Of a DNA stretch of 64,000 nucleotides, positions 7,275-33,269 are shown one piece after another. The notes under the pieces are model-generated. The model did no database searches, had not been told where the DNA came from, and was given only the letters and a program-made list of their open reading frames with translations. The number at the start of each line of letters is the position of its first letter. Within the stretch, counting starts at the first letter, position 1. Origin of the DNA: Escherichia coli. Its GTDB lineage: Bacteria > Pseudomonadota > Gammaproteobacteria > Enterobacterales > Enterobacteriaceae. Position numbers and translations under genes: made by a program. The stretch lies in NCBI RefSeq assembly GCF_003334405.1, contig NZ_QOWM01000001.1; one strand, given 5' to 3'.

Positions 7275-8051
7275 ATGTCCGAAACAAAAAACGAACTTGA
7301 AGACCTGCTGGAAAAAGCAGCAACTGAACCGGCGCACCGCCCGGCCTTTTTCCGTACTCTACTGGAATCCACCGTCTGGGTGCCTGGTACGGCGGCGCAG
7401 GGCGAGGCTGTGGTTGAAGATAGCGCGCTTGATTTACAGCACTGGGAAAAAGAAGACGGCACCAGCGTCATTCCTTTTTTCACCTCGTTAGAAGCACTTC
7501 AACAGGCGGTTGAAGACGAACAGGCATTTGTCGTAATGCCCGTTCGCACGCTGTTTGAGATGACACTTGGCGAAACGCTCTTCCTTAATGCCAAACTGCC
7601 AACCGGTAAAGAATTTATGCCGCGTGAAATCAGTTTGTTGATTGGTGAAGAGGGAAATCCGCTGAGCAGCCAGGAAATCCTGGAAGGCGGTGAATCGCTG
7701 ATATTATCGGAAGTCGCAGAGCCGCCAGCACAAATGATTGATTCACTCACCACCTTATTTAAAACCATTAAGCCGGTGAAGCGTGCTTTTATTTGTTCAA
7801 TTAAAGAGAACGAAGAGGCACAGCCTAATTTACTTATTGGCATTGAAGCCGATGGTGATATCGAAGAAATTATTCAGGCGACGGGAAGTGTAGCGACCGA
7901 TACATTACCTGGCGATGAACCAATCGATATTTGTCAGGTGAAAAAAGGGGAAAAAGGAATTAGCCACTTTATTACCGAACATATTGCGCCATTCTATGAA
8001 CGTCGCTGGGGTGGTTTTTTGCGTGACTTTAAACAGAATCGGATAATCTAA
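7275..8051 (+). CDS. sseB: SseB (enhanced serine sensitivity protein)
   Basis: ORF 7266-8051 trimmed to ATG 7275 (258 aa, MSETKNELEDLLEK). Confidence 0.93.
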   Translation: MSETKNELEDLLEKAATEPAHRPAFFRTLLESTVWVPGTAAQGEAVVEDSALDLQHWEKEDGTSVIPFFTSLEALQQAVEDEQAFVVMPVRTLFEMTLGETLFLNAKLPTGKEFMPREISLLIGEEGNPLSSQEILEGGESLILSEVAEPPAQMIDSLTTLFKTIKPVKRAFICSIKENEEAQPNLLIGIEADGDIEEIIQATGSVATDTLPGDEPIDICQVKKGEKGISHFITEHIAPFYERRWGGFLRDFKQNRII

Positions 8052-8054
8052 AAT

Positions 8055-8080
8055 ATGCCGCCCAAAGGGCGGCATTCGGG
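8055..8080. terminator. bidirectional intrinsic terminator (sseB 3' end / small-ORF transcript 3' end)
   Basis: Hairpin atgccgccc-aaa-gggcggcat with U-rich flanks on both strands. Confidence 0.6.
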
Positions 8081-8081
8081 C

Positions 8082-8219
8082 TTACTTGCTGCTCTGAAGG
8101 TTGTTAACCACCAGTAAATTGTCGCCGGAGAGACTCCGGTTATTATTTACCTCGGTTAACAGCGCACCAGAAACAATAAGTACGATACAAAAGCACCGTA
8201 TCTTCATTGTGCGGTCCAT
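8082..8219 (-). CDS. small hydrophobic protein, candidate type I toxin-like (41 aa from ATG 8207, or 45 aa from ATG 8219); ryfA/timP-like
   Basis: Hand-translated minus-strand ORF (M)DRTMKIRCFCIVLIVSGALLTEVNNNRSLSGDNLLVVNNLQSSK*; hydrophobic N-terminal segment; absent from the >=60-aa ORF track; weak SD; location matches the ryfA locus between sseB and sseA as I recall it. Confidence 0.5.
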   Translation of the reverse strand: MDRTMKIRCFCIVLIVSGALLTEVNNNRSLSGDNLLVVNNLQSSK

Positions 8220-8335
8220 GCGAAGACCGCATCACGACAGCACCACTGGCGATATTGCCGCGATAGCAAGCGCTGTGAAACACCTGCATTTACGGCCACG
8301 GAACATCCTTTCCTAAAGCCAGCGCCCGTTTGCGA

Positions 8336-8532
8336 GACGGCGGAAAGGGCCGCAGTGGATAATACACTAACAGAACAATAATAACTCTCTTTTGCTTGAC
8401 AAAAAGAGAGTTACTGGCGAGTATTGTCTCCGCTGAGACGCGCTTGCATTACTACGGTAATACAACCTGCTGGAAAGGCCGCGAACCGGACCAGCAACAA
8501 AAAACCGCCTGATTTTGGCGGTTTTTTGTTTT
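8336..8532 (+). repeat. tandem duplicated sRNA-like module, copy 1
   Basis: About 195-bp unit beginning acggcggaaagggcc..., sharing ctctcttttgcttgacaaaaagagagttactgg and cctgctggaaaggccgcgaacc blocks with copy 2. Confidence 0.75.
8433..8532 (+). ncRNA. candidate small RNA (copy 1; diverged sibling), approx. bounds
   Basis: TTGACA at 8396-8401 with weak -10 about 17 bp downstream; strong intrinsic terminator aaaaaaccgcc-tgatttt-ggcgg + ttttttgtttttt (8498-8534); ryfB/ryfC-type by location. Confidence 0.4.
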
Positions 8533-8752
8533 TTAAAGGAAAGTGAATTTACATGTTTAAGTAATATCTTTTACCGGTTAGAATTTTTAATTTTGAGCAG
8601 GATTTGTTTATATTTGTCTGAATTCGGACTAATAAGCCAGGTTATTTTATTACCGAACACGGCGGAAAGGGCCGGTGTCGATAATACGCTAAATAAACAA
8701 TAATTACTCTCTTTTGCTTGACAAAAAGAGAGTTACTGGTGAGTATTGTTTT

Positions 8753-8857
8753 GCTGTGAAGCACCTGCGTTGCTCATGTAACACAAGTCAACCTGCTGGA
8801 AAGGCCGCGAACCAGACTAGCAATAAAAAACCGCCAAATTCGGCGGTTTTTTATTGC
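8753..8857 (+). ncRNA. candidate antitoxin-type small RNA (copy 2), approx. bounds
   Basis: Predicted 5' end gcugugaagcaccugcguu is complementary, with 2 G-U wobbles, to the small-ORF mRNA leader (plus-strand 8270-8291); terminator 8825-8856. Confidence 0.45.
8825..8856. terminator. bidirectional intrinsic terminator (sRNA copy 2 / sseA)
   Basis: aaaaaaccgcc-aaattc-ggcgg-tttttt with A-tract upstream; directly downstream of sseA stop on the minus strand. Confidence 0.7.
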
Positions 8858-8868
8858 CTGTAAAATAC

Positions 8869-9714
8869 TTATTTCACTGGCTCAACCGGTAAATCTGCCC
8901 GCGCGCCCCATTCACTCCATGCGCCGTCGTACAGTTTCACGTTTGGCACATCCAGCGTCGCGAGTGCTAACAAAACCACGGCTGCCGTTACACCAGAGCC
9001 GCAGCTGACGATAATTGGTTTGTCGTAGCTGACGCCGCGACCAAAAAATATCGCATCCAGTTCATCGGTCGTTTTTAGTTCGCCTTCGCGCACCAGTTCC
9101 GTCCACGGAACATTCAGTGCTCCGGGAATATGTCCGCGACGTAAACCTGGGCGAGGTTCATCAACTTCTGCGTTAAAACGTGCAGCCGGGCGGGCATCAA
9201 TAATTTGCGCCGTATTTTCATGGCTTGCCAATAATACATCGGTTACTTTCACCACGGCTTCAGGATTAAACGCGGCGTTAAACTCTCCTTCCGGCAGCTC
9301 TACTGCACCTTCTTCTAACAGCAGATCATCGCGCTGCCAGCCTGCAAGTCCACCCCCCAGAATCGACACTTTCTCTACACCAAAGGTGCGCAGCATCCAC
9401 CATGCTCGTGGGGCTGAGAAAAGATTACCTTCGTCATAGACAATCAGGTGCTTATCCTGGTTAACGCCTAATTCACGCATCGCCACGGCGAACGTTTCCG
9501 GGCGCGGCAGCATGTGCGGAAGCGGGGAAGTGTGATCAGAAAGCGCTTCGATATCAAAAAACACTGCGCCGGGAATATGTCCATTCAGATACTCCTGAGC
9601 AACGTTACGATCCTCCTGTCCAGGCGACGCCATGCGGGCATCGATAATCTGAATTTCCGGGTCATCAATATGTTCGGCGAGCCAGTCGGCTCCTACAAAC
9701 CATGTCGTGGACAT
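8869..9714 (-). CDS. sseA: 3-mercaptopyruvate sulfurtransferase SseA (rhodanese family)
   Basis: ORF 8869-9873 trimmed to ATG 9714 (281 aa, MSTTWFVGADWLAEHIDDPE); active-site CGSGVTA. Confidence 0.94.
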   Translation of the reverse strand: MSTTWFVGADWLAEHIDDPEIQIIDARMASPGQEDRNVAQEYLNGHIPGAVFFDIEALSDHTSPLPHMLPRPETFAVAMRELGVNQDKHLIVYDEGNLFSAPRAWWMLRTFGVEKVSILGGGLAGWQRDDLLLEEGAVELPEGEFNAAFNPEAVVKVTDVLLASHENTAQIIDARPAARFNAEVDEPRPGLRRGHIPGALNVPWTELVREGELKTTDELDAIFFGRGVSYDKPIIVSCGSGVTAAVVLLALATLDVPNVKLYDGAWSEWGARADLPVEPVK

Positions 9715-29672: not shown

Positions 29673-31250
29673 ATGACGGAAAACATTCATAAGCATCGCA
29701 TCCTCATTCTGGACTTCGGTTCTCAGTACACTCAACTGGTTGCGCGCCGCGTGCGTGAGCTGGGTGTTTACTGCGAACTGTGGGCGTGGGATGTGACAGA
29801 AGCACAAATTCGTGACTTCAATCCAAGCGGCATTATTCTTTCCGGCGGCCCGGAAAGTACTACTGAAGAAAACAGTCCGCGTGCGCCGCAGTATGTCTTT
29901 GAAGCAGGCGTACCGGTATTCGGCGTTTGCTATGGCATGCAGACCATGGCAATGCAGTTGGGCGGTCACGTTGAAGCCTCTAACGAACGTGAATTTGGCT
30001 ACGCGCAGGTTGAAGTCGTAAACGACAGCGCACTGGTTCGCGGTATCGAAGATGCGCTGACCGCAGACGGTAAACCGCTGCTCGATGTCTGGATGAGCCA
30101 CGGCGATAAAGTTACCGCTATTCCGTCCGACTTCATCACCGTAGCCAGCACCGAAAGCTGCCCGTTTGCCATTATGGCTAACGAAGAAAAACGCTTCTAT
30201 GGCGTACAGTTCCACCCGGAAGTGACTCACACCCGCCAGGGTATGCGCATGCTGGAGCGTTTTGTGCGTGATATCTGCCAGTGTGAAGCCCTGTGGACGC
30301 CAGCGAAAATTATCGACGATGCTGTAGCTCGCATCCGCGAGCAGGTAGGCGACGATAAAGTCATCCTCGGCCTCTCTGGTGGTGTGGATTCCTCCGTAAC
30401 CGCAATGCTGCTGCACCGCGCTATCGGTAAAAACCTGACTTGCGTATTCGTCGACAACGGCCTGCTGCGCCTCAACGAAGCAGAGCAGGTTCTGGATATG
30501 TTTGGCGATCACTTTGGTCTTAACATTGTTCACGTACCGGCAGAAGATCGCTTCCTGTCAGCGCTGGCTGGCGAAAACGATCCGGAAGCAAAACGTAAAA
30601 TCATCGGTCGCGTTTTCGTTGAAGTATTCGATGAAGAAGCGCTGAAACTGGAAGACGTGAAGTGGCTGGCGCAGGGCACCATCTACCCTGACGTTATCGA
30701 ATCTGCGGCGTCTGCAACCGGTAAAGCACACGTCATCAAATCTCACCACAACGTGGGCGGCCTGCCGAAAGAGATGAAGATGGGCCTGGTTGAACCGCTG
30801 AAAGAGCTGTTCAAAGACGAAGTGCGTAAGATTGGTCTGGAGCTGGGCCTGCCGTACGACATGCTGTACCGTCACCCGTTCCCGGGACCAGGCCTTGGCG
30901 TTCGTGTTCTGGGTGAAGTGAAGAAAGAGTACTGTGACCTGCTGCGCCGTGCTGACGCCATCTTCATTGAAGAACTGCGTAAAGCGGACCTGTACGACAA
31001 AGTCAGCCAGGCGTTCACTGTGTTCCTGCCGGTACGTTCCGTTGGCGTAATGGGCGATGGTCGTAAGTATGACTGGGTTGTCTCTCTGCGTGCTGTCGAA
31101 ACCATCGACTTTATGACCGCACACTGGGCGCATCTGCCGTACGATTTCCTCGGTCGCGTTTCCAACCGCATTATCAATGAAGTGAACGGTATTTCCCGCG
31201 TGGTGTATGACATCAGCGGCAAGCCGCCAGCTACCATTGAGTGGGAATGA
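29673..31250 (+). CDS. guaA: GMP synthase (glutamine-hydrolysing)
   Basis: 525-aa [25 protein letters not shown]; GATase and ATP-PPase (SGGVDSS) motifs. Confidence 0.97.
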
Positions 31251-31274
31251 TTTGACCCTGCACTATGAATGAAC

Positions 31275-31304
31275 AAAACCCTCTGTTACTACAGAGGGTT
31301 TTTT
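31275..31304. terminator. bidirectional intrinsic terminator between guaA and yfgI
   Basis: aaaa-ccctctgt-tact-acagaggg-tttttt. Confidence 0.75.
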
Positions 31305-31342
31305 ATCTTCAAGAATTATAGGATTGAAGTTACTAACATCGA

Positions 31343-31882
31343 TTAATTAAACCAGCTGTCCGATTTGTTCTCTTCTGCTTTGCCCACGCTTTTCATCAGA
31401 TCGCGACCGCCTTCAGTCATATTTCTGTTGGCGTCAGCTTCAGATTGCACCACATCGGTTTGCGCAGCTTTGTGCTTCAGTTCCTGATCGATAAATTCGT
31501 TTTCTCGCTTAACGCGGGCTTCTTCTTTCGCCAGCGCCAGTTTTTGTTTCTGAATCTCTAAGCTGCGTAGCTCATCTTCATAACTTTGATCGCGTTTTTT
31601 GTCCGCAGAGGCTTCGGCGTCCAGTTTATCCTGACGAGCTTTCTTATTTGCCGCTGCCGTTGCCGCTCTTTTGTTAGCGGCGGCCTGGGCATTTGCGCGA
31701 CGTTGCTTCTCTTGCTGGATTTCCCTGTTGCGCTCCGCGACCCATTCGTCATGCTGCCTTTGCTCTTCATTTTTACCTTGCTGTTCCGCTTCTGCGACAG
31801 CAGAGAGTTGATCCTGCAATGATGAGGCGATAGCCGGATAGCTTAAGGAGGCTAAGATGGCGCAAAGAAAAACTTTCTTCAT
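31343..31882 (-). CDS. yfgI: YfgI (secreted, charged coiled-coil-like protein)
   Basis: 179-aa ORF with signal peptide MKKVFLCAILASLSYPAIASS; K/E/A/Q-rich. Confidence 0.9.
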   Translation of the reverse strand: MKKVFLCAILASLSYPAIASSLQDQLSAVAEAEQQGKNEEQRQHDEWVAERNREIQQEKQRRANAQAAANKRAATAAANKKARQDKLDAEASADKKRDQSYEDELRSLEIQKQKLALAKEEARVKRENEFIDQELKHKAAQTDVVQSEADANRNMTEGGRDLMKSVGKAEENKSDSWFN

Positions 31883-31897
31883 GACTCCTCCTGATTA

Positions 31898-32416
31898 TTA
31901 GCTCTTTTCAGGACATTTGGTATTTGGCTGAATACGCGTTTCGTTATACGTCGTGGTAATAACAACGGCTAAACCTGTCGTAAACTGGCACTCTTTACCC
32001 ACCTGGGTAGAGGTATACACTTTGGTGCCTTCCTTATAGGTTAAAGAAACACCTTCCACTAAGGTTTTATCATTCACCATAGAACCCGCTGCCGCGCCTA
32101 CAGCTCCGCCGCCAACTGCACCTGCCGTCGTTCCGGAATTGCTGCCAGACCCGACGTTGTGGCCGATAACACCGCCAGCGACTGCGCCAATAAGCGCGCC
32201 GAAGGCTTGTGCGTTCCGTTTATTTTGGGAGTTGTCTACGGCAACTTTTGCGGGAAGAATGGAAATAATATTAACGGTTTTAGTTTCTTGTTTGGTATTC
32301 AGTTGATCGGTTTGATAAACATCGGCAGCATGATCGTCAGCATTTGACTGGCATCCTGCCAGAGTGAATGACGCTAACATTGCCACAGGCAGAAGACATT
32401 TTTTAAATTTCATCAC
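31898..32416 (-). CDS. yfgH: YfgH (glycine-zipper outer membrane lipoprotein)
   Basis: 172-aa ORF; lipobox LAGC; Gly-rich zipper GALIGAVAGGVIGHNVGSG. Confidence 0.9.
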   Translation of the reverse strand: MMKFKKCLLPVAMLASFTLAGCQSNADDHAADVYQTDQLNTKQETKTVNIISILPAKVAVDNSQNKRNAQAFGALIGAVAGGVIGHNVGSGSNSGTTAGAVGGGAVGAAAGSMVNDKTLVEGVSLTYKEGTKVYTSTQVGKECQFTTGLAVVITTTYNETRIQPNTKCPEKS

Positions 32417-32726
32417 TATTCCTTGTTATACACATTACGAAAAATAAGACATTTAAGATCATCAAAAGAGGAAAGTAAATGTATTGCGTATAAAGGGATA
32501 GATTAAATTTATTAAAATTCACGCAGGGAATAATTTATAAAAATATATCATTACAACATATATATTAATTTTATATTTATTTCGCAGCCAAACAGGATAA
32601 ACATCAGTCAGGATAAAGACGTAAAATTTAAGATGAAAGAATATCTGCCGCTTTGATAATCCCAAACAGCAAAAGCATCCGACAGCGAAGTGCCGTTATG
32701 TTCTGTGAAAGTGGAGAAGGTAACCG

Positions 32727-32918
32727 CTAACGTTGTACCGGTGATTCGACGGAGAGTGTGGATTGCTGAGCTTCTTTTTTGCTCTGATGGTGCTGCCAGG
32801 CACCGACGGACGAGTAGATAAAACGGCCAAAGAAGAAGATAAAGCTGATGAGCAGTACGATACGGGTCATGCGACTGTTAAATCGGTGTCGTTTTCGCAT
32901 ACTGGTTGCCTGACTCAC
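32727..32918 (-). CDS. yfgG: YfgG (small membrane protein)
   Basis: 63-aa ORF MSQATSMRKRHRFNSRMTRIVLLISFIFFFGRFIY. Confidence 0.8.
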   Translation of the reverse strand: MSQATSMRKRHRFNSRMTRIVLLISFIFFFGRFIYSSVGAWQHHQSKKEAQQSTLSVESPVQR

Positions 32919-33128
32919 AAAAGGTTCCTTGAAGTATGTCCCACGCTGTGGACGGTACTTACATTAAGGCACAACAGGACAAAATGGTCAATTCTTCGTT
33001 ATGTAAAAAAGCGTCAGTGGATACATATTTTAATGTTATGGAAGTTAATTTAATTATTTACAATGATGATGTAATAATGATGAATTAACATGATAAACGT
33101 AATAATTCATTAATCAGGGTTATTTTGT

Positions 33129-33142
33129 TTGATATATATCAA
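33129..33142 (+). promoter_or_regulatory. FNR-type binding site (TTGAT-N4-ATCAA) upstream of pdeF
   Basis: Perfect TTGATatatATCAA; TAGAAT -10 candidate at 33164-33169 puts the site near -41.5 (class II geometry). Confidence 0.6.
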
Positions 33143-33269
33143 TTGGTACTTTCATATGACACTTAGAATCAATGCTCTCTATAGTGATGAATAATCATCA
33201 TTCGAAGTCAGGTGGGATGCCTGTCTGAATACACCTCCTTCAGGATGTGGGGGATTCTGCTGAGCATCT

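Follow-up and report, generated by a model that had tools for sequence, protein, structure and literature searches.

Two long AT-rich intergenic regions enclose the small gene yfgG in Escherichia coli, and this locus raises the question of whether they are promoters silenced by nucleoid proteins, as a preliminary description proposed, or are AT-rich for some other reason. The analysis covered a stretch of 64,000 nucleotides, referred to here as the window, which is the reverse complement of positions 2598208-2662207 of E. coli K-12 MG1655 with 10 single-base differences, none of which falls within 32417-33269. The gene names and coordinates given earlier are correct: yfgH occupies 31898-32416 (minus strand), yfgG 32727-32918 (minus strand) and pdeF 33270-35513 (plus strand).

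Base composition bears out the description of both gaps as long, strongly AT-rich and unlike their GC-balanced surroundings. The yfgH-yfgG gap (310 bp) has a GC content of 0.306 (30.6%) and the yfgG-pdeF gap (351 bp) one of 0.342 (34.2%), compared with 0.522 for the whole window and 0.495 for yfgG; the two stretches singled out earlier, 32460-32600 and 33040-33160, have GC contents of 0.234 and 0.223. Among 150-bp sliding windows (mean GC 0.522, standard deviation 0.054), values of 0.25 or less occur only at the two gaps flanking yfgG and make up 0.3% of all such windows. The lowest non-overlapping 130-bp windows are 32452-32581 (0.192), 33023-33152 (0.200) and 8522-8651 (0.246). When the 18 annotated intergenic regions that are 100 bp or longer (mean 0.433) are ranked by GC, both gaps come lowest, with 100-bp minima of 0.17 and 0.18 and the next lowest at 0.23. 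Sliding-window GC thus places the gaps outside the normal intergenic range, as the lowest-GC stretches of the 64 kb. As wholes, the gaps lie only about 1.3-1.9 standard deviations under the intergenic mean; their extreme parts are cores of about 130-210 bp (32430-32640 and 32996-33128). A repeat search of 32380-33300 returned short chance matches in AT-rich DNA and the FNR palindrome, and nothing else. The features of the locus are as follows, in window coordinates.

32430-32640, no strand: AT-rich core of the yfgH-yfgG gap, GC 0.246, upstream of the predicted yfgHI promoter and within the H-NS regions
32451-32479, minus: predicted sigma-70 promoter of yfgHI, read from the sequence
32640-32700, minus: candidate intrinsic terminator of yfgG, weak, with a hairpin and then a tail containing U (scan and fold)
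32727-32918, minus: yfgG, 63 amino acids, one hydrophobic segment, GTG start (MG1655 annotation)
32919-32995, minus: yfgG leader and core promoter, GC 0.43, the GC-normal part of the gap
32930-32926, minus: yfgG Shine-Dalgarno sequence AAGGA
32938-32953, minus: yfgG 5' hairpin, a leader element
about 32956, minus: yfgG start site, converted from the published 2627275 (U00096.2)
32971-32963, minus: yfgG extended -10, TGcCTTAAT
32991-32986, minus: yfgG -35, TTGACC
32996-33128, no strand: AT-rich spacer, GC 0.233, separating the core promoters of yfgG and pdeF, which are divergent
33129-33142, plus: FNR box TTGATATATATCAA of the class II pdeF promoter (sequence, and Lacey 2010 as cited in PMC3718329)
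33164-33169, plus: pdeF -10 hexamer TAGAAT (conservation, and Lacey 2010 as cited in PMC3718329)
33177-33269, plus: pdeF 5' leader, about 93 nt (alignments and folds)

Three independent published data sets agree with the part of the earlier claim that concerns binding by a nucleoid protein. In ChIP-chip, the anaerobic H-NS region 2626274-2628408 corresponds to 31823-33957 of the window (2134 bp) and the aerobic region 2624400-2628963 to 31268-35831 (4563 bp) (Myers 2013, PMC3688515, Table S3), and both gaps lie within each of the two regions. The coordinate conversion was controlled with the FNR site at 2627088 (window 33143) and the sigma-70 peak at 2627279 (window 32952). ChAP-seq finds H-NS on yfgH and on the yfgHI transcription unit (Higashi 2016, PMC4720273, S2 Table), and yfgH is counted among horizontally transferred genes (Higashi 2016, PMC4720273). 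Genomic SELEX places an H-NS site within the yfgF/yfgG spacer, yfgF being pdeF (Shimada 2014, PMC3946193). The GC content of the H-NS patch is 0.42-0.45 and that of its 10-kb flanks 0.51-0.53. The third-lowest-GC spot, the timR/ryfA gap at 8522-8651, is also inside a Myers H-NS region (2650827-2652882, window 7349-9404), so the link from composition to H-NS holds elsewhere in the window. Table S6 of Myers gives nucleoid-protein overlap at the pdeF FNR site as 'None', yet the H-NS region of Table S3 contains this site.

The AT cores may act as H-NS nucleation sites, on a scale finer than ChIP-chip, whose resolution is too coarse to place nucleation there, and H-NS may spread or bridge between both cores. 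The exact high-affinity H-NS 10-mer TCGATAAATT has one match in the window, in yfgI (31488-31497), and similar motifs in the AT tracts have two mismatches at best (32506-32515 and 32532-32541). The high-affinity motif is not obligatory for H-NS binding. The other part of the earlier claim, silencing, fares differently from promoter to promoter: it agrees with the hns stpA effects at pdeF, may extend to yfgHI, and fails at yfgG, where sigma-70 occupancy is strong.

At pdeF, the promoter has the class II FNR layout, a TTGAT-N4-ATCAA box with TAGAAT about 21-22 bp downstream of it, at positions conserved across genera. Of 33 loci, 32 have the box, at a distance of 124-150 bp upstream from the ATG of pdeF, and the -10 reads TAAAAT or TAGAAT in 22 of 23 aligned sequences and TACACT in the other. 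With the start site at about 33176-33177, as the literature has it (Lacey 2010, as cited in PMC3718329), the FNR box would be centred at -41.5. An FNR ChIP-seq peak and a 16.08-bit site have been reported at this promoter, and in an hns stpA double mutant the FNR ChIP peak average at pdeF increases significantly, from 0.35 to 1.68 (log2) (Myers 2013, PMC3688515). Oxygen-dependent expression of pdeF (ratio 0.23) was seen only in the hns stpA mutant (Myers 2013, PMC3688515), and in the wild type in glucose minimal medium the FNR peak is accompanied by no FNR-dependent change in pdeF expression (Myers 2013, PMC3688515, Table S9). FNR-dependent anaerobic expression of pdeF in the wild type is on record (Lacey 2010, as cited in PMC3718329), so silencing of pdeF is conditional, not absolute. 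Because the double mutant is pleiotropic, its effect on pdeF could be partly indirect. An alternative pdeF promoter, ATGACA-18-TATAGT, has been predicted (Shimada 2014, PMC3946193) and was also recovered by a consensus scan whose promoter and terminator counts were not above those of shuffled sequences.

The right tract is conserved together with this promoter. The order ppx-pdeF-yfgG is kept in 37 of 37 loci and the features of the tract across about 30 genera; the FNR box, the -10, the gap length (338-366 bp in most genera) and the AT minimum are conserved across Enterobacteriaceae. This conservation of synteny, gap length, AT minimum and FNR box argues that the right tract is ancestral and maintained and not a recent scar. 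The spacer itself has a GC content of 0.28 across genera and a mean pairwise identity of 0.48 vs a random expectation of 0.30, and it contains a T-tract that resembles a UP element; blocks in it at 33001-33008 (ATGTAAAA), 33034-33043 and 33056-33062 are conserved. In a set of 5,400 E. coli genomes, identity over the yfgG-pdeF gap reaches 99% or more in 79% and nowhere drops below 95%.

The yfgG promoter is in the middle of the H-NS patch, and yfgG is not silenced: its promoter occupies the GC-normal edge of the gap and is strongly occupied by sigma-70. The promoter has been given as TTGACC-17-CTTAAT (PMC3946193), a sigma-70 ChIP-seq peak of height 11932 maps to it (2627279, window 32952) (Myers 2013, PMC3688515), and a sigma-S ChIP peak has been published there as well. 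All of the promoter and leader elements are conserved in 23 genera. The product, described earlier as 63 amino acids with one transmembrane segment, is a 63-residue DUF2633 protein (Pfam PF11119, E = 4.3e-28, residues 7-49, full model covered) with one hydrophobic segment; a search of NCBIfam gave zero matches for YfgG or YfgI. YfgG is required for nickel and cobalt tolerance (PMC6338753), and its protein identity is 97-100% across Escherichia. The terminator candidate downstream of yfgG has a fold z-score of 0.01, which is weak support.

The left tract has another history. Among the 37 loci compared, yfgHI is found only in Escherichia and C. amalonaticus, and the tract is AT-rich in every lineage that carries yfgHI (100-bp minimum GC 0.12-0.18) and unalignable between species. 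The predicted yfgHI promoter has a -35 of TTTACT (32479-32474), a 17-nt spacer and a -10 of TTAAAT (32456-32451), from which a start site near 32444 would be expected. Both hexamers are conserved in E. coli, the cryptic clades and E. albertii and partly in C. amalonaticus, and the surrounding DNA is not. No sigma-70 ChIP-seq peak at this predicted promoter is among the anaerobic matches listed (Myers 2013, PMC3688515); together with H-NS binding, this suggests that yfgHI may be silenced. Of the 5,400 E. coli genomes, just 35% have a yfgH-yfgG gap with 99% identity or more, and in 21% its identity is 90-95%. Divergence of yfgH between E. coli and E. albertii is 22-24%, compared with 1-5% for yfgG. 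Published work describes faster divergence in H-NS-bound regulatory gaps that belong to acquired genes, and a variable left gap beside a conserved right gap in E. coli fits that finding. The distance between yfgG and guaA can be as short as 62 bp or exceed 4.3 kb, with gene content differing by genus; integrative element or prophage genes occur at the same junctions in single E. coli strains.

We consider it likely, with good confidence in the explanation as a whole, that both gaps contain H-NS-preferred tracts in one patch, that pdeF is limited in its response to FNR and that yfgHI is kept low. Both AT tracts would be H-NS-preferred DNA in one extended patch of H-NS, probably also of StpA, that spans yfgI, yfgH, yfgG and pdeF. 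The right tract (32996-33128) would be the upstream spacer common to two back-to-back core promoters, and the yfgG promoter, used by sigma-70 and sigma-S with a start at about 32956, would sit just outside the AT core; it is strongly occupied by RNA polymerase. Under anaerobiosis FNR binds the class II box of pdeF at 33129-33142, and H-NS and StpA on the adjoining AT-rich DNA would reduce FNR occupancy and leave pdeF without an oxygen response in glucose minimal medium. The left tract (32430-32640) would be the upstream region of the yfgHI promoter, carried with an accessory cassette and AT-rich despite sequence drift, and the same H-NS patch most likely keeps yfgHI expression low.

Several known systems resemble this arrangement in part. 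H-NS-restricted FNR promoters such as hlyE and ttdR ('Category 7'; Myers 2013, PMC3688515) likewise have a high-quality FNR box near -41.5 in an extended H-NS region, and in them deletion of hns and stpA raises FNR occupancy and makes oxygen-dependent expression appear. The pdeF promoter differs in having its FNR peak in both strains and not in the mutant alone, so that the locus is partly and not fully masked, and in that FNR activates it in the wild type when conditions are different (Lacey 2010, as cited in PMC3718329). Xenogeneic silencing, e.g. of ybdO (Higashi 2016, PMC4720273), is matched in part by yfgHI, which is patchy, classed as horizontally transferred and H-NS-bound and whose upstream gap diverges faster than neighbouring DNA and stays AT-rich, whereas the yfgG-pdeF tract is an ancestral core regulatory region and was not acquired. 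The right tract also resembles 'type-A spacers', with back-to-back promoters, starts about 220 bp apart and a common AT-rich segment, and it is listed with constitutive RpoD promoters and an H-NS site (Shimada 2014, PMC3946193); the pdeF promoter predicted there, ATGACA-18-TATAGT, differs from the functional one, which uses the FNR box and a TAGAAT 15 bp farther upstream (Lacey 2010, as cited in PMC3718329).

H-NS binding, the class II FNR promoter of pdeF, the yfgG start site and the hns and stpA effects on pdeF were already public. What is added is that two tracts of similar appearance have opposite histories, the right one ancestral and conserved and the left one acquired with a cassette and fast-evolving, and that the promoter of yfgG evades the H-NS patch. 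The locus compactly illustrates how H-NS limits a transcription factor at a promoter of the core genome, and it is a possible test case. The AT-rich gaps around yfgG are thus an ordinary, largely explained feature that opens no new question, and two conserved hairpins with GGA loops in the pdeF leader are the sole loose end.

These hairpins lie at 33209-33223 and 33236-33252, after a variable one at 33183-33202, and their GGA motifs (33215-33217 and 33243-33245) are conserved across genera. In pair counts over the leader, 88% of cells are paired, vs 30-53% with slid partners, and compensatory changes are few; RNAalifold returned one 5-bp hairpin for the leader with a covariation term of almost nil. 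Targets of CsrA typically have at least two GGA motifs, preferably in hairpin loops, about 10-60 nt apart. The pdeF leader fits this pattern in GGA number, loop position and spacing; yfgF, pdeF and b2503 are absent from the literature searched and from the CsrA CLIP-seq supplements, which come from cultures that may not have expressed pdeF. A more elaborate reading builds on the hairpins and on the conserved spacer blocks. It is an ancestral switch of two layers, kept throughout the family, in which a regulator or anti-silencer on the blocks would couple YfgG, for nickel and cobalt tolerance, with pdeF, an anaerobic c-di-GMP phosphodiesterase, and CsrA or another RNA-binding factor would act on the GGA-hairpin leader. 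We hold this to be unlikely and mention it tentatively.

It is improbable that the AT-richness is a scar of horizontal acquisition, i.e. foreign low-GC DNA, with the whole yfgG neighbourhood an island. The patchiness of yfgHI, its classification as transferred, the variable yfgG-guaA interval, the far greater divergence of yfgH than of yfgG and the integrative or prophage genes at junctions in single strains all point to acquisition, but only for the left tract, since the right tract, yfgG and pdeF are syntenic in every locus. Acquisition and H-NS binding are moreover complementary and not mutually exclusive.

Nor do we give much weight to another DNA-binding protein (Fis, IHF, StpA alone, PgrR, FlhDC or an unknown factor) as the reader of the tracts with H-NS secondary, which seems improbable too. 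The three conserved spacer blocks suggest sequence-specific recognition, and in genomic SELEX the yfgF/yfgG spacer gave a hit for PgrR and the yfgG/yfgH spacer one for FlhDC, but both come solely from in vitro work. The closest IHF ChIP-chip region (2626233-2626512, window 33719-33998) is inside pdeF and in neither gap, the genes are absent from the ArcA supplementary tables, and SdiA has been published to be without effect on an E. coli yfgHI fusion. ArcA binding at GTTAAT-like words was rejected on a misfit of repeat spacing and the same absence from the tables.

Ordinary promoter AT-richness (UP elements, melting DNA and terminator tails), with the H-NS signal passive and without consequence, is very improbable. 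Intergenic DNA here is AT-richer than coding DNA anyway (mean GC 0.43), the block at 33001-33008 is at -45 to -52 of the yfgG promoter, the position of a UP element, and yfgG is strongly transcribed within the patch; however, the cores are the most extreme in the 64 kb, and removal of H-NS and StpA significantly changes FNR occupancy and uncovers the oxygen-dependent expression of pdeF.

That the tracts hide an unannotated gene, either a small protein (a 50-aa ORF at 32936-33088, plus strand) or a small RNA, is extremely improbable: PGAP annotates the ORF (WP_000017552.1 and its variants) in almost every RefSeq E. coli genome and its frame is open throughout Escherichia, but it is missing from the curated record of MG1655, crosses the yfgG promoter in antisense orientation, has no NCBIfam match, changes within Escherichia mostly in ways that alter amino acids (K-12 and strain E69 differ at 10 of 50 residues), has a broken frame in C. 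amalonaticus and has short indels and poor conservation in other genera. An annotation artefact is the probable origin of this widely propagated "hypothetical protein". The other short ORFs of the gaps have stops or frameshifts in cryptic clades, and the search of both gaps for small ORFs found none conserved beyond E. coli and none credible. An Rfam scan of 31200-33600 at E-values up to 1 gave no sRNA or riboswitch, its lone sub-threshold match being a chance one to a human lncRNA model (E = 0.76).

IS5 and IS1 insertions into AT-rich H-NS-bound control regions are known as events of the bgl, flhDC and glpFK type. An IS1 in strain EH08-18-36 was rejected as a tract insertion on its position inside pdeF. 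One natural strain has an IS1 at the start of the AT spacer, which is like these events in position and differs from them in being coupled to a deletion into pdeF. In a gallium-evolved line, IS5 is inserted at MG1655 2629042 (window 33166) at a frequency of 0.5; its TTAG target lies within the pdeF -10, on the border of the AT tract.

The window matches E. coli K-12 MG1655 2598208-2662207 in reverse complement (window coordinate = 2662208 minus the U00096.3 coordinate). Ten single-base differences, each isolated, separate the two sequences along the 64 kb (8606, 18305, 19770, 22550, 24156, 26998, 30230, 35831, 41458 and 60195), none of which lies within 32417-33269. The gene names and coordinates of the preliminary description agree with the MG1655 annotation, and the relevant genes and segments are listed here.

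guaA: 29673-31250, plus strand
yfgI: 31343-31882, minus strand
yfgH: 31898-32416, minus strand
yfgH-yfgG gap (left tract): 32417-32726, 310 bp, GC 0.306
AT-rich example within the left tract: 32460-32600, 141 bp, GC 0.234
yfgG: 32727-32918, minus strand, 192 bp, GC 0.495
yfgG-pdeF gap (right tract): 32919-33269, 351 bp, GC 0.342
AT-rich example within the right tract: 33040-33160, 121 bp, GC 0.223
pdeF (yfgF): 33270-35513, plus strand
ppx: 35552-37132, minus strand
Whole window: 1-64000, 64 kb, GC 0.522

GC at or below 0.25 over 150 bp occurs only in the two gaps flanking yfgG (0.3% of all 150-bp windows). The lowest non-overlapping 130-bp windows are, in order, 32452-32581 (0.192), 33023-33152 (0.200) and 8522-8651 (0.246). 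Among the 18 intergenic regions of at least 100 bp in the MG1655 annotation (mean GC 0.433), the two gaps have the lowest GC and the lowest 100-bp minima (0.17 and 0.18). Their composition is therefore outside the normal intergenic range, and the earlier observation that both are strongly AT-rich relative to their surroundings is confirmed.

The AT core of the right tract, 32996-33128 (GC 0.233), is flanked by back-to-back yfgG and pdeF core promoters, both in more GC-normal DNA.

32991-32986, minus strand: yfgG -35 TTGACC, 17-nt spacer to the -10 (promoter listed in Shimada 2014, PMC3946193)
32968-32963, minus strand: yfgG -10 CTTAAT, TG upstream (same promoter listing)
33129-33142, plus strand: FNR box TTGATATATATCAA of pdeF, a class II FNR promoter according to Lacey 2010 as cited in PMC3718329
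33164-33169, plus strand: pdeF -10 TAGAAT (same promoter, same source)

The published yfgG start site, 2627275 in U00096.2, falls at window 32956 (window = 2660231 minus the U00096.2 coordinate, an offset checked with the FNR site and the sigma-70 peak). A strong anaerobic sigma-70 ChIP-seq peak (2627279, height 11932) falls at 32952 (Myers 2013, PMC3688515), and the promoter also lies under a published sigma-S ChIP peak. The pdeF FNR site scores 16.08 bits and carries an FNR ChIP peak (Myers 2013, PMC3688515). The wild-type yfgG expression ratio is 0.45 (Myers 2013 Table S12, PMC3688515), taken to be aerobic/anaerobic from the values of yfiD (0.11) and pta (0.10) in that table; yfgG would thus be about 2-fold higher anaerobically, although it lacks an FNR box placed for activation.

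The two tracts were compared across 37 Enterobacteriaceae loci from a YfgG-based scan, all of which keep the order ppx-pdeF-yfgG. The yfgG-pdeF gap is 338-366 bp in most loci. Its AT minimum (100-bp GC 0.18-0.30) is kept in 28 of 33 measured loci and lost (0.39-0.45) in four, namely two Pluralibacter, Enterobacter sp. CC120223-11 and Siccibacter. Of the 33 loci, 32 have an FNR box whose distance to the pdeF ATG is 124-150 bp. A 23-genus alignment retains the yfgG -35 and extended -10, the FNR box, the pdeF -10 and the leader elements. The AT spacer holds three conserved blocks (33001-33008, 33034-33043 and 33056-33062), with an identity of 0.48 vs 0.30 expected at random and a GC of 0.28 with all genera pooled. 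Conserved synteny, gap length, AT minimum, FNR box and blocks therefore show the right tract to be ancestral and maintained. Within E. coli, the right gap is at least 99% identical in 79% of 5423 matched genomes and 95-99% identical in 21%, with none at 90-95%.

Among the same 37 loci, yfgHI is found in Escherichia and C. amalonaticus only. The tract upstream of yfgH is extremely AT-rich (0.12-0.18) in every lineage with yfgHI, and is unalignable between E. coli and E. albertii (~47% mismatch); yfgG differs by 1-5%. This limited distribution, constant association and fast divergence therefore place the left tract with the accessory yfgHI cassette. Among 5419 matched E. coli genomes, the left gap is at least 99% identical in 35%, 95-99% in 44% and 90-95% in 21%. 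Two hexamers that outlast the surrounding divergence form a predicted yfgHI promoter.

32479-32474, minus strand: predicted -35 TTTACT
32456-32451, minus strand: predicted -10 TTAAAT

That the AT-richness is a scar of horizontal transfer agrees with the prediction of yfgH as a horizontally transferred gene (Higashi 2016, PMC4720273), but accounts for the left tract only. The yfgG-guaA interval (31251-32726) is a variable hot spot, ranging from 62 bp to >4.3 kb with unrelated genes between genera. E. coli E105 carries an IS3 copy and conjugative-element genes (trbL) from 39 bp after yfgG onward, in the usual place of yfgHI, and in strain O15_8X phage lysis genes adjoin yfgI. The annotated yfgH start is a GTG at 32416 (minus strand); the ATG at 32413 has a conserved AAGGA (32424-32420) at a distance of 6 nt, gives MKFKK... 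with a lipoprotein signal, and looks like a better start.

An AT-rich, H-NS-associated feature has already been documented here by genome-scale studies. H-NS ChIP-chip regions span 2626274-2628408 anaerobically (2134 bp; window 31823-33957) and 2624400-2628963 aerobically (4563 bp; window 31268-35831) (Myers 2013 Table S3, PMC3688515), covering both gaps together with yfgH, yfgG and pdeF, the last in part or whole. The nucleoid-protein overlap of the yfgF/yfgG FNR site is given as 'None' in Table S6, yet the site is inside the Table S3 regions (PMC3688515). ChAP-seq finds yfgH and the yfgHI unit H-NS-bound (Higashi 2016, PMC4720273), and an H-NS SELEX site is marked in the yfgF/yfgG spacer (Shimada 2014, PMC3946193). 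As a consistency check, the timR/ryfA gap (8354-8752, core 8522-8651), which contains the TimR/RyfA-TimP toxin-antitoxin-like sRNA locus and has the third-lowest GC in the window (0.246), is also within a Myers H-NS region (7349-9404; PMC3688515). The high-affinity H-NS 10-mer TCGATAAATT has its sole exact copy in the 64 kb inside yfgI (31488-31497, plus strand) and a one-mismatch copy at the yfgI stop (31339-31348), both inside the aerobic region and outside the AT tracts.

Removal of H-NS and StpA alters FNR occupancy and the oxygen response at pdeF. In the hns stpA mutant the average FNR peak reaches 1.68, against 0.35 in wild type, a change flagged significant (Table S7, PMC3688515). The wild-type peak comes without FNR-dependent expression change (Myers 2013 Table S9, PMC3688515), and yfgF changes with O2 (+O2/-O2 = 0.23) in the double mutant only (Table S11, PMC3688515). 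Ordinary promoter AT-richness cannot account for these mutant effects. The data support instead the nucleoid-protein reading of the preliminary description, which had likened the gaps to bound, silenced promoters; binding and the restraint at pdeF bear this out, and the yfgG promoter is open. We infer that H-NS nucleates at the two AT cores, the most favourable DNA of what is most likely one H-NS/StpA patch, and spreads or bridges between them. On the right, the patch would restrain FNR at the conserved class II promoter, so that pdeF expression would need more than anaerobiosis; on the left, it probably holds the acquired yfgHI cassette quiet. The yfgG promoter, on the GC-normal edge, stays open. 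ArcA and IHF were considered as readers of the tracts and are without support; the closest IHF region falls within pdeF, outside both gaps (Myers 2013, PMC3688515).

A hidden small ORF or RNA is unlikely, as Rfam gave no match at either gap and ORF comparison across Escherichia and Citrobacter left no credible gene, other short ORFs decaying in cryptic clades. In almost every RefSeq E. coli genome, PGAP calls a 'hypothetical protein' of 50 aa (WP_000017552.1 and its variants; 32936-33088, plus strand). It is not in curated MG1655, is open only in Escherichia with mostly amino-acid-changing differences, is frame-broken in Citrobacter and crosses the yfgG promoter in antisense orientation. The call is probably an artefact of annotation.

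YfgG is confirmed as DUF2633. The extreme 5' end of its mRNA (32938-32953, minus strand) carries a short GC-rich hairpin conserved across genera (GUCCAC-AGC-GUGGGAC in K-12, GCCC...GGG in other genera), which may be a stabilising stem-loop. The pdeF 5' leader (33177-33269, plus strand) has two hairpins with GGA in each loop, conserved across ~25 genera, and a third upstream.

33183-33202, plus strand: upstream hairpin, sequence variable
33209-33223, plus strand: CAGG-UGGGAUG-CCUG
33236-33252, plus strand: UCCU-UCAGGAUGU-GGGG

In the GGA-loop hairpins 88% of cells are paired vs 30-53% with partners slid; compensatory changes are few and covariation is weak. By analogy, the pair resembles twin CsrA sites; no CsrA link to pdeF was found in the literature or CsrA data, and no Rfam match to the hairpins. 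Insertions also occur in this control region. IS5 at MG1655 2629042 (window 33166; target TTAG, 33163-33166) lies in the pdeF -10 in a gallium-evolved population at frequency 0.5 (PMC6928379), strain O15_8X has IS1A at ~32998 with a deletion into pdeF, and strain EH08-18-36 has IS1 within the start of pdeF.
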